Assembly (NCBI GenBank): GCA_041690135.1
Contig: JAWLHY010000005.1
Coordinates: 160,001 to 224,000, forward strand
DNA: 64,000 bases
Direction of reading: 5' to 3'
Origin: Armatimonadota bacterium
GTDB lineage: Bacteria > Armatimonadota > SYMT01
In this document: positions 43,583 to 50,094 of the stretch, piece after piece
Position numbering within the stretch: position 1 is the first letter of the stretch
Layout: the number at the start of each line of letters is the position of its first letter
Translations under genes and position numbers: made by a program
Notes under the pieces: model-generated
What the model was told of the DNA's origin: nothing
Database searches by the model: none
What the model saw: only the letters and a program-made list of their open reading frames with translations

Positions 43583-44086
43583 TTACTTCCGCGCGAGGGC
43601 CTGGGTGACGGCGGCGTCGAGCTGCCTGGCATCCGCCCCCTCGATCACAGCGGCCACTTTCCCGTCTTTCCCGATCACAATATTCACCGGATAGCTCTGG
43701 ACGCCGAACCGGTCGAAGACCACGCTCTTGGCATCGTGAATGATCGGAAAGGTCGCCTTGACTTCCTTGCCGAACGCCGCGGCCTCTTCCAGTTTCTCGT
43801 CCGCGCTTACCGAGACGACGGTGAAGCCCTTCTTCCCGTACTTGGCCTGCAGTTTTTGAAGATGAGGATACTCCTCATGGCAGGGCCCTCAGTAGTAGCT
43901 GAAGAAGTTCATCAGCACGACCTTGCCTTTGTACTGGCCGGAACTGACGGTCTTCCCCTGCACCGACTTCCCGCTCCACGCGGGGGCGGCTTTGCCCTTC
44001 GGCACGATATCCGCGACCGCGGCCCCCACCCCCACCGTCATCGCGACGGCGACGGCGGCGCCCAGGCGCGCCCAACCCATGCTCAT
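43583..44086 (-). CDS. Exported TlpA/ResA-like thioredoxin-fold selenoprotein (UxxC), 167 aa
   Basis: KGKVVLMNFFSYY-TGA-GPCHEEYPHL...FPIIHD...YP continues in frame to TAA at 43583; TGA at 43889-43891. Confidence 0.88.
43862..43878 (-). promoter_or_regulatory. Bacterial SECIS-like hairpin
   Basis: AUGAGGA-GUA-UCCUCAU begins 10 nt after the UGA; loop G at +18. Confidence 0.7.
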
Positions 44087-46980: not shown

Positions 46981-47529
46981 CTAACGCTTCTCAATACGCG
47001 CCTGGAAGGCATCCCCCTGCTTCCAGTCCCTCTTACCCAGGCCTTTTGTCGGCACCGAGCACTTTTCGGCACGGGCGTAACGGGCCGCGGCGAAGCCGGT
47101 CCGGTTGACCCCATACATGCAGTGCATGTAAACATCGCCGCTCTTGAAGGCGGAGGCTAGCACATCGGGGAGCTTTTTGTCGAGGGCGCTGATGCCCACA
47201 TACCGGAGCCCGTGCTTCTTTGCCATGGCGGCTTCGGCGTCGGGAGAGAGACGTCCCGTTTTGCCGCTCCGGTCGTCGCTGTTGGCCGGCTTGCGGAGGT
47301 CGATGAAGGTGACAGTCTTACCCCGAGCCTTGGCCGAGGACGCGAGAGCTTCCAGCGTGTCCTTGCGAGGCGCGCCACCGCGCCAGAAGCGGTTGCCGTT
47401 CAACTCGCGGACCAGATGGACATTATGCCCGGGCGGCGGGGCCGGCGCAGCTACCGCGAGCGAAGAAGAGAGGAGGAGCGCGGCCGCAAGGCTACGCGCC
47501 CAAACATAAGGGGTGCCAGTACTCTGCAT
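46981..47529 (-). CDS. Secreted Cys-based (PTP/DSP-like) phosphatase
   Basis: Signal peptide, FWRGG, IDLR, HCMYGVNRTG (CX5R). Confidence 0.8.
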   Translation of the reverse strand: MQSTGTPYVWARSLAAALLLSSSLAVAAPAPPPGHNVHLVRELNGNRFWRGGAPRKDTLEALASSAKARGKTVTFIDLRKPANSDDRSGKTGRLSPDAEAAMAKKHGLRYVGISALDKKLPDVLASAFKSGDVYMHCMYGVNRTGFAAARYARAEKCSVPTKGLGKRDWKQGDAFQARIEKR

Positions 47530-47596
47530 GGATACGAATGCGAACGGTGGAGGGCGTATCGCGAGCCAATCCCGACAGACCGCCCTCCCCGACAGG

Positions 47597-48448
47597 TTAA
47601 CGAAGCGCCGCGGGCCGATCGTCGTCGTCTTCGCCGAGGAGTTTCTTCAGGCGAGCGATCTCCTCCTGCTCCTGCCGCTTCCGCAGTGGGTTGAAACCGC
47701 GAACCTTCTCCCGGTCATCGGGCGGAATGCGCAGGTAAGACTGCGGTTCCGGGCGGCGCTGCGGGCGGCTGAGGGCAAAGCCAACGTCGAGGCGGGGCAT
47801 CTTGCGTACGTAGATATACGCAGCCGCAGACCCGGCGAGCGCAAAGATTCCAATAATTGGGCCGAGCGGACCGTAGCTCAGGCCGAAGTAGAAGTAGACC
47901 AGCGCCACCGAAATCGCCGCCAGCATCTTCATCTTCAGCGGCAGGATTCCCCAGAAGCGGATCTCCTGTTCCGGGTCCATGGCTGCCCACGCCACCAGCA
48001 GCGCCGTGGTGGGAAGCCAGAGGCCCGCCAGCCGGAACGCCACATCAAAGATCAACGCCGCCAGGATGAAGCCCAGAACGGTGATGAAGGTAAACGAGGC
48101 AAGCAGGACGGCGAAGTTTCGCGATCCCCACGCGCGCTCCAACACTCCCCCGCACATATAGAACCAATACCCCCCGAACAGGAGGGCGACCGGGTCGGTG
48201 ATGACGATCGGGTAGGTTAACCAGGCCCAGGGTTGCAGCACCCAGCCCGGGTCGCTACGGCCTGCAATAGTGAACCGCAGCCACTCAACCAGCGGTCCCC
48301 GCAGCGGAAACGCCAGGAAGTAGAGCAGGAAGAAGGCGGCGCCGGCGATGAGGACGCCGCGCACGACCGGGATGCACTGGAGACTGAAGGGCAGCCAACC
48401 GCTGCCACCGCCTCCGCCTCAACCGCCGCCGGACATCGTTCTACGCAT
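47597..48448 (-). CDS. Rhomboid-like, probably non-catalytic membrane protein; likely N-terminus spans an in-frame TGA at 48419-48421
   Basis: PWAWLTY, LERAWG, AWAAMDPEQEI..LPLKMK; GxSG replaced by GLWL; frame continues upstream through the TGA to ATG 48448 with an AAAGG RBS. Confidence 0.65.
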
Positions 48449-48618
48449 TCTCGCAGCCTTTCTCGGGAGAGGGTCGCCCCGATCGCATACAGTATAGCCA
48501 TCCTGTCCCGGGCCGGCCAGTGGAAGCAAGCGGCAGGAATCCGGGCGCGGGATCAGTAATTGCCCCCTGACAACCGGTTCTACCCCAGATCGACCCGACC
48601 GAACATGGAAACTCCTCA

Positions 48619-50094
48619 ATGACCCGAAGGATCCTGACCGCCGCGCTCGCGTTGGCCGCCTTGACTGCCGTGGGAAGCGTGGCACAGCCAAAGCCGGAAT
48701 CCGCCCGTCCCAACGTGCTGTTCATTGCGGTGGATGACCTGCGACCGCAGATGGGCTGCTACGGGGACCGCCTGGCGAAGACGCCCCACATCGACCGCCT
48801 CGCCGCCCAGGGCGTGGTGTTCGACCGGGCCTATTGCCAGCAGGCCGTCTGCAGCCCCTCGCGGACCTCGCTGCTTACCGGCCGCCGTCCGGACACGACG
48901 AAGGTCTACGATCTCGATACCCCTTTCCGGAAGAACCTGCCGGAAGTGGTCACCCTTCCGCAGCATTTCAAGGCCTACGGCTACCACAGCCAGGGAATGG
49001 GCAAGATCTACCACGGCGGTCTGGACGATGCCGCTTCCTGGTCGGTGCCGCACTGGATGCCGAAGCGACCGGGATTCGGCCCGGAGGGTCAGAAGCTGCT
49101 CACCCGGCTCCGCCAGGAGGCCCGGGCCGCCGGCAAAGACCTGACCAAACGGTCGAACCAGCCGCGCGGGCTGCCCTGGGAAGCCCCGGAGGTGGAAGAC
49201 AGCGCTTTGCCCGACGGCGCGATTGCGGACCACGCCGTGGAGACCCTGCGCCAGGTAAAGGATCGCCCTTTCTTCCTGGCGGTCGGCTTCATCAAGCCGC
49301 ACCTGCCGTTCGTGGCTCCCAAGAAGTACTGGGATCTCTACTCCCGCGAGCAGTTCCGCCTGGCGGATAATCCGCACCCGCCGAAGGGCGCCCCCACTTA
49401 CTCCTTGAGCAACTGGGGCGAACTGCGCGCCTACCTGGGGATGCCGAAGCAGGGACCGGTGACGGAGGACCAGGCGCGCAGCCTGATCCACGGCTACTAT
49501 GCCAGCATGAGCTACATGGACGCCCAGGTGGGCAAGGTGCTGGCGGAGCTCGACCGGTTGGGGCTGCGCGAGAACACGATTGTGGTGCTGTGGGGCGACC
49601 ACGGCTGGGAGTTGGGCGAGCACGGGGAGTGGTGCAAGCACGAGAACTACGAGACCTCCACGCGGGCGCCGCTGATCGTCTCCGCTCCTGGCCGCAAGGC
49701 GAACGGCAAGACCAGCCGCGCCCTGGTGGAGTTCGTGGACCTCTACCCCACCCTCACTGAGCTTTGCGGTCTGCCGCTACCAGAGGGGCTGGAAGGGACG
49801 AGTTTCCAGCCGCTGCTGGAACAGGCCGACCGTCCCTGGAAGAAGGCGGCGTTCAGCCAGTATCCCCGCAACGTAGCGCGGATGGGTCGCGGCATGGGGT
49901 ATACGCTGCGGACCGACCGTTACCGCCTGGTGGAGTGGACGCTGCCCGGTAAGGATTTCCAGGAGTACGAGCTTTATGACCACCAGACGGACCCGGGGGA
50001 GAACGTCAATCTGGCGCAGCAGCCGGAGCACGCGGAGCTAGTGAAGAAGCTGGCGGAGCAGTTACACGCGGGTTGGCAGGCGGCCCGGCCATAA
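48619..50094 (+). CDS. Exported sulfatase (iduronate/choline-sulfatase-like, family S1)
   Basis: PNVLFIAVDDLR, CSPSR FGly motif, GKIYH, KPHLP, GDHG. Confidence 0.93.
   Translation: MTRRILTAALALAALTAVGSVAQPKPESARPNVLFIAVDDLRPQMGCYGDRLAKTPHIDRLAAQGVVFDRAYCQQAVCSPSRTSLLTGRRPDTTKVYDLDTPFRKNLPEVVTLPQHFKAYGYHSQGMGKIYHGGLDDAASWSVPHWMPKRPGFGPEGQKLLTRLRQEARAAGKDLTKRSNQPRGLPWEAPEVEDSALPDGAIADHAVETLRQVKDRPFFLAVGFIKPHLPFVAPKKYWDLYSREQFRLADNPHPPKGAPTYSLSNWGELRAYLGMPKQGPVTEDQARSLIHGYYASMSYMDAQVGKVLAELDRLGLRENTIVVLWGDHGWELGEHGEWCKHENYETSTRAPLIVSAPGRKANGKTSRALVEFVDLYPTLTELCGLPLPEGLEGTSFQPLLEQADRPWKKAAFSQYPRNVARMGRGMGYTLRTDRYRLVEWTLPGKDFQEYELYDHQTDPGENVNLAQQPEHAELVKKLAEQLHAGWQAARP

Follow-up and report, generated by a model that had tools for sequence, protein, structure and literature searches.

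An in-frame TGA in the gene for a predicted rhomboid-fold pseudoprotease of an Armatimonadota bacterium is more probably a young nonsense change than a selenocysteine codon

The window, by which we mean the whole 64,000-nucleotide stretch of DNA that was analysed, carries on its minus strand a gene for a predicted rhomboid-fold pseudoprotease, which comprises 283 codons when its internal TGA is read through and its stop codon (TAA, 47599-47597) is included. Reading from ATG 48448 gives MRRTMSGGG, the TGA and then GGGGGSGWLPFSLQCIPVVRGVLI, in the same frame as GTG 48364 and the 255-amino acid open reading frame that ends at 47597 (Table 1). An earlier note on this DNA had proposed that the TGA encodes selenocysteine (Sec) in the N-terminal tail of a rhomboid-like membrane protein. 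The arrangement from which it started is confirmed by our own reading of the minus strand: the start codon, the nonapeptide, the TGA and the frame shared with the membrane ORF all lie where it had placed them, and its TATACT and AAAGG motifs are present. A two-hexamer promoter scan of 47400-48700 returned no site. Between the TGA and Trp-18 there is no in-frame ATG, GTG or TTG, and no purine-rich ribosome-binding site is visible ahead of GTG 48364. The stretches of 9 and 18 codons around the TGA are too short for codon-usage scoring to inform.

The neighbours of the gene encode a sulfatase, a protein that resembles phosphatases only weakly, at a score under the Pfam cut-off, a SUKH/SMI1 protein and a CxxCxxCC protein, and they suggest no common pathway. 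The gene directly downstream (46981-47529, minus strand) codes for a signal-peptide protein with an H-C-M-Y-G-V-N-R-T motif and a weak match to a Pfam DSP-phosphatase family (E 1.7e-4, below cut-off).

Table 1. Features of the pseudoprotease locus, numbered by position in the window
Feature	Position	Strand	Basis
Predicted rhomboid-fold pseudoprotease gene	47597..48448	minus	ORF and translation; Pfam, profile and AF2/Foldseek support
ATG, ancestral family start codon	48446..48448	minus	Own Met-Arg start aligned here in 33/37 homologs
In-frame TGA, codon 10	48419..48421	minus	Sequence read; repeated in the 201-nt contig of run X1
Hairpin GGCAGC-GGUUG-GCUGCC, SECIS-like geometry, codes G-S-G-W-L-P	48390..48406	minus	Sequence and folding tests
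TGC, Cys25 of the LQC motif	48374..48376	minus	Cys in 0/37 homologs at this column
GTG, first canonical start after the TGA	48362..48364	minus	Start of the public 255-aa gene call (P0003)
AAAGG, weak Shine-Dalgarno-like motif	48457..48461	minus	8 nt before the ATG; sequence read only
TATACT, -10-like hexamer	48491..48496	minus	Sequence read

The Pfam Rhomboid family (PF01694, MEROPS S54) matches the 255-amino acid part of the protein just below its threshold (E 5e-4, 20.7 bits, cut-off 22.6), and DUF1751 and DER1 match more weakly; for DER1 (PF04511) the pseudoprotease scores 13.4 bits (E 0.075) against a cut-off of 26.6. A large protein database returned 52 matches, many of them named 'rhomboid family' at source and one labeled Armatimonadota; the best non-self match is ∼59% identical. 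Our alignment of 38 sequences contains the query and 37 of the 51 non-self matches, the self call, 11 N-terminally shorter calls (inspected separately) and 3 weak matches having been omitted. When the family alignment was used for a profile search, it matched GlpG with an E value of 1.8e-9 over TM1-TM3. The AlphaFold (AF2) model of the protein (pLDDT 84.5, pTM 0.75) has a predicted six-helix rhomboid fold, with residues 1-20 disordered (pLDDT below or about 50). A Foldseek search with this model returned GlpG as the top PDB match (E 3.5e-5, TM-score 0.68 normalized to the target), followed by human Derlin-1 (7czb, 0.61). The rhomboid identity claimed by the earlier note is thereby borne out, as both the Foldseek and the profile search lead to GlpG, and so is its remark that the catalytic dyad is missing. 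The protein contains no histidine at all, the family alignment has neither a conserved His column nor GxSG, and Ser is present in at least 80% of the sequences in only two columns, both in the W-G-S-x-N region after TM2. Judged from these sequences, the protein is a rhomboid-fold pseudoprotease that lacks the catalytic Ser (GxSG, TM4) and His (TM6).

The six-helix fold is shared with GlpG-type rhomboid proteases (E. coli and H. influenzae GlpG, PDB IDs 2ic8 and 2nr9), and the profile similarity, which ends after TM3, includes the G-G-x-x-E-R/K-x-x-G-S motif. Unlike GlpG, the family has no Ser-His dyad, and it adds two conserved extensions: an N-terminal tail (M-R-x-x-W-G, a Gly-rich linker and W-L-P-F-S…I-P-V) and a C-terminal helix with an acidic end (N-P-L-R-K-R-Q-E-Q-x-E-I-E-R-L-R-K-L-L-G-E-D-D-D). 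Derlin/Der1 proteins likewise have an inactive rhomboid fold; their likeness to our protein is one of fold only, with the DER1 profile below its cut-off. The C-terminal tail (47600-47740, minus strand) is predicted to be helical and contains the invariant residues Glu-263, Leu-267, Leu-270, Leu-271, Gly-272 and Asp-275; it looks like a docking element for a cytoplasmic partner. Of the 401 genomes scanned in the phylum, 165 have a member of the family at E ≤ 1e-20, and a member was also present in 4 of 6 same-family genomes; the protein is common in the phylum, not universal, and dispensable.

By alignment and AF2 model, the TGA is placed in the variable, disordered, Gly-rich linker of the N-terminal tail. 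Its column holds a residue in 28 of the 37 homologs (Arg, Ser, Gly, Asn, Trp, Lys, Glu, Asp, Gln, Pro or Met) and a gap in the other 9; Cys is absent, and several of the residues found have codons one base from TGA. No in-frame stop was found in the N-terminal region in four same-family genomes or in six metagenome loci, where the DNA is open. In the scan of the 401 genomes an internal TGA was seen in this genome only, among the 150 listed of 165 matches; seven other entries scored with one TGA proved to be natural terminal stops. We also considered short homolog calls that begin V-R-G… as cases of a hidden upstream TGA, and rejected this for the one such locus covered at the DNA level, L042 (which matches P0033), where the frame is open and the start is non-ATG. 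A Cys ahead of W-L-P-F occurs in a single homolog (P0044), in extra sequence that precedes the conserved Met. Searching 1.84 billion representatives with a profile brought in three further members of the clade with the N-terminal tail (P0055, P0056 and P0086), which have no linker Cys before W-L-P-F or its equivalent. An exact-pattern scan of species-representative genomes with the 41-nt stretch from TGA to hairpin, the stop codon left free, gave no match. The earlier note had set beforehand that Cys or TGA at the aligned position in homologs, with a conserved hairpin, would support Sec, and that Gly or Trp there and never Cys or TGA would refute it. As far as the aligned sequences go, the prediction failed, with neither a Cys among the 37 homologs nor a stop at the 10 loci. 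Because relatives have neither Cys nor TGA at this position, a stop mutation is likelier than a new selenoprotein.

The TGA does lie within a conserved coding frame, with family-conserved peptide on both sides of it. Within the 18-codon stretch between the TGA and GTG 48364, residues 18-31 are at the family consensus (W18, L19, P20, F21, S22, I26, P27, V28, V29, R30 and G31), and Cys25 is found in this protein alone. On the other side, Trp-5, present in 33 of 33 homologs with an aligned start, is Met here, and Gly-6 (29 of 33) is Ser. Such a pattern, drift at residues 5 and 6 with consensus at 18-31, fits relaxed constraint before the stop only. Together with the public gene call, which starts at GTG 48364, it argues for a reading in which the nine codons MRRTMSGGG and the stop form a short leader and the truncated protein is the normal product, made by re-initiation or from a non-canonical start (CTG codon 19 or GTG 48364). 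We consider this improbable: W18 is conserved, yet no start codon of the ATG, GTG or TTG type precedes it after the TGA, GTG 48364 has no visible ribosome-binding site, and a homolog from a same-family genome (G006, L021) also lacks W5-G6 yet has no stop, so that loss of the motif need not mean disuse.

Could the TGA be an error of sequencing, assembly or consensus, the true codon being a sense codon (GGA, TGG or CGA) in an ordinary full-length member of the family? A single base change would restore a residue seen in the homolog column (Gly, Trp, Arg or Ser), and on either side of the TGA the reading frame is unbroken and conserved. Finished consensus sequence seldom contains substitution errors, and a 201-nt Logan contig from run X1 covers 48328-48528 at a depth of 2.7 with 0 differences and 0 gaps, although it is possibly not independent of the source sample. 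Run X1 is the only run that covers the TGA; the share of the sampled words found in any one run is at most 0.10, and no RNA run is listed. Because the X1 contig repeats the TGA exactly, a sequencing error is unlikely, and we rate it as slightly more improbable even than the leader.

The genome (9.1 Mb, 65.1% GC) has the Sec machinery that the earlier note had wished to see confirmed. SelA (481 bits), SelB (384), SelD (370) and tRNA-Sec (67) all score above their cut-offs; selA, selD (which has one in-frame TGA of its own) and the tRNA-Sec gene lie side by side (G000 C1:1149693-1152359), and selB is found at C8:51343-53220. Scanning the genome for in-frame TGAs flanked on either side by sequence with coding potential returned 85 sites, and we tested 21 genes: 20 picked for redox-like motifs or strong hairpins, and the TlpA-like gene of the window. 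Eighteen of these 21 have a Pfam redox or catalytic domain, namely 8 AhpC/Redoxin/TlpA-like, 3 CMD, 1 Rdx/SelW, 1 FdhA, 2 rhodanese, 2 Thioredoxin_7 and 1 dual-specificity phosphatase. For 17 of the 18 the TGA falls inside the listed domain stretch; the other is a rhodanese gene (L099) for which only the first of two stretches is given. Because selA, selB, selD and tRNA-Sec are found together with at least 18 well-supported selenoprotein genes, Sec decoding is possible in this organism. In all 18 reference selenoproteins Sec stands at the position of the family's catalytic Cys, in motifs such as UxxC, CxxU, RVUH, HUx5R and the rhodanese loop, and the candidate is unlike all of them. Its Sec would also be close to the start; in the Rdx/SelW-type gene Sec apparently falls near codon 11 if numbering begins at the first Met of the translation (a putative start), and the proximity is thus probably no obstacle.

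The TlpA-like UxxC gene that the earlier note had described 4.5 kb away is real. It lies at 43583-44086 on the minus strand and encodes a TlpA/Redoxin-type selenoprotein with the motif Y-Y-U-G-P-C and a SECIS element AUGAGGA-GUA-UCCUCAU, whose loop G is at nucleotide 21; three paralogous Sec genes are found on contigs 6, 7 and 19. The distance from UGA to loop is similar to that in the candidate, in the same genome. In the TlpA gene, however, Sec replaces the first Cys of a thioredoxin-fold CxxC motif (Pfam AhpC-TSA, E 2e-23 across the site), and the candidate is without such supports.

Several other genes with in-frame TGAs merit description. One (L097, C8:47602-48051, minus strand) encodes a 150-amino acid dual-specificity phosphatase domain (Pfam PTP-SAK, E 6e-15), whose H-C-x5-R loop (H-U-M-G-G-G-G-R-A-G-T) has the TGA in precisely the place of the catalytic Cys, with a hairpin behind it; among bacterial selenoprotein families, a protein-tyrosine-phosphatase fold with Sec is not known to have been described. 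Two rhodanese-domain genes (L099, C12:60045-61067; L092, C5:442469-443497) have the TGA at the active-site Cys position, one of them being a tandem rhodanese behind a cytochrome c domain and the other fused to a Na+/H+ exchanger membrane domain. Finally, L086 (C1:169081-170262) and L100 (C14:43329-44438) have the TGA in C-U contexts (…EERC-U-VFAG… and …GGHC-U-ANSM…), followed by hairpins of 10 and 8 bp. The sequence shows coding potential on either side, Pfam gives no match, and the two may represent thioredoxin-like selenoproteins not yet characterised.

The hairpin noted behind the candidate TGA is present, with its first loop G 19 nucleotides after the A of the TGA. With nucleotide 1 set at the U of UGA, nucleotides 16-21 pair with 27-32 in the stem, and the loop consists of G22, G23, U24, U25 and G26. 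This geometry matches true SECIS elements of the genome, as the earlier note had remarked for the neighbouring TlpA element: in the fdhF-type SECIS of the organism's own FdhA gene (C3:652980-654593) the stem-loop also starts ∼12 nucleotides after the UGA, the stem also ends at nucleotide 21, and the loop GGUCU occupies nucleotides 22-26, where the candidate has G22, G23 and U24. In E. coli fdhF, G23 and U24 are the SelB contacts. Compared with the fdhF type, the candidate has no bulged U and no Sec/Cys pair in homologs, and its arms are set by conserved residues.

We defined a strict descriptor (perfect stem of at least 6 bp, loop of 3-7 nucleotides starting at nucleotide 19-26, G in the first two loop positions), which is passed by 1,799 of all 189,971 TGA triplets in the genome (0.95%) and by 6 of its 18 true Sec sites. 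A relaxed descriptor recovers 17 of the 18 true sites together with 22.8% of 3,799 sampled TGAs, and the candidate passes both. When synonymous codons were resampled for the same peptide, 10.3% of 20,000 sequences contained a strict hairpin, compared with 1.0% when the residues were shuffled too. The arms of the hairpin are the codons of the conserved G-S and (W)-L-P, and three TGA-free homologs (L022, L043 and L044) have hairpins at the same place with the same GCTGCC. The fold energy of the 52-nt stretch corresponds to z = -1.17, with 24 of 200 shuffles folding as well; this lies within the spread of the 18 true sites (-3.27 to +1.74, median about -0.9), so that fold energy does not discriminate. 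An Rfam scan of 48200-48600 gave chance-level miRNA and snoRNA matches only. The hairpin is real, and because a tenth of the resampled sequences for this peptide pass the strict descriptor, its excess over chance is only modest once the encoded peptide is counted; from these figures we estimate the likelihood ratio in favour of Sec at only ∼3.

These results bear on the proposal that SelB binds the hairpin and delivers Sec-tRNA to UGA-10, giving a full-length pseudo-rhomboid with a GGG-U-GGGGG tail. The tail could be adaptive, a redox element possibly pairing with Cys25, or the nonsense change could have been rescued by accident, by a hairpin already at the right distance. For Sec insertion speak the complete machinery, a loop that starts at nucleotide 22 with GGU as in the FdhA SECIS, the pass of a strict descriptor shared with 6 of 18 true sites and 0.95% of all TGAs, a fold z score within the range of true sites, the conserved segment after the TGA, the unique Cys25 and the confirmation of the TGA in run X1. 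Set against these are the homolog column and the 10 loci with neither Cys nor TGA at a variable, disordered position, a hairpin that is expected in about one in ten sequences coding for this peptide and is present in TGA-free homologs, and a relaxed descriptor that catches 17 of 18 true sites but also 22.8% of the sampled TGAs. The feature is moreover confined to one genome, so there is no sign of selection on the TGA. What stands of the earlier proposal is the rhomboid fold without its catalytic dyad, the machinery and the geometry of the hairpin, and what does not is the Cys or TGA in homologs. We regard Sec insertion at UGA-10 as an unlikely, minority reading. The stronger claim of a new type of bacterial selenoprotein, a pseudo-rhomboid with Sec in a disordered N-terminal GGG-U-GGGGG tail and a lineage-specific Cys 15 residues further on, is more doubtful again.

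A precedent for such a tail exists in eukaryotes. SELENOK and SELENOS are described as carrying Sec in cytosolic tails that are Gly-rich, disordered and devoid of CXXU, and as binding the rhomboid pseudoprotease Derlin-1 (PMC9344019), which lends some support to Sec here. If the UGA is Sec, the candidate would likewise have it in a Gly-rich, disordered cytosolic tail without CXXU. The eukaryotic system differs in that the Sec tail is C-terminal, sits on a separate single-pass protein and depends on a SECIS in the 3'-UTR, and nothing here ties the candidate to protein quality control. The word 'rhomboid' does not occur in the main text on BSepDB (111 families), and of the 10 of 20 papers listed by a literature search on bacterial selenoproteins and rhomboids none was on the topic, as judged by titles and abstracts.

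Our preferred explanation is that the TGA is a young, lineage-specific nonsense change, the product being lost, N-terminally truncated or made through leaky read-through only. We give this a probability of roughly 0.6, a figure that, like the gradings of the other readings, expresses a weighing of the evidence and is not a computed posterior. The change would have arisen probably by one base substitution from a Gly, Arg, Trp or Ser codon, in what is predicted to be the disordered, Gly-rich cytoplasmic tail of the pseudoprotease. The hairpin behind it would stem mostly from the way the conserved G-S…W-L-P peptide is encoded, and would not be an evolved SECIS. Ribosomes starting at ATG 48448 would mostly terminate after nine residues, with one of three outcomes: no protein, the gene then being a pseudogene of recent origin; a product that lacks the N terminus after a restart at GTG 48364; or a little full-length product through leaky UGA decoding. 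The TGA, its variable surroundings, the lack of Cys or TGA in relatives and the dependence of the hairpin on the peptide are observed; we infer both the recency of the change and these events in translation.

Several observations weigh against a nonsense change. Family consensus persists through the 18 codons that separate the TGA from GTG 48364. Either the stop arose very recently or translation of this stretch continues, and the latter would need decoding of the TGA. After the TGA no canonical start codon comes before W18, and no purine-rich ribosome-binding site stands ahead of GTG 48364. The hairpin has FdhA-like geometry and passes a descriptor met by 6 of 18 true sites and by 0.95% of all TGAs, the genome makes heavy use of Sec, Cys25 is unique, and the TGA allele recurs in another data set.

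If Sec insertion is true after all, the locus would have captured the birth of a Sec site, a nonsense change having been offset by a hairpin that already stood at SECIS distance because of the conserved peptide. It would be a Sec site without Cys ancestry, beyond the reach of homology-based selenoprotein searches, and a bacterial parallel to Derlin with SELENOS and SELENOK in which one polypeptide joins what eukaryotes split. If the nonsense reading is correct, the locus is an unremarkable, recent stop allele of a dispensable membrane-protein gene and is useful mainly as a warning: where a genome is GC-rich and uses Sec, the encoded peptide alone can give rise to a good SECIS-like hairpin after an in-frame TGA. 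The genome itself is a rich source of selenoproteins, among them an unusual Sec phosphatase and Sec rhodaneses.
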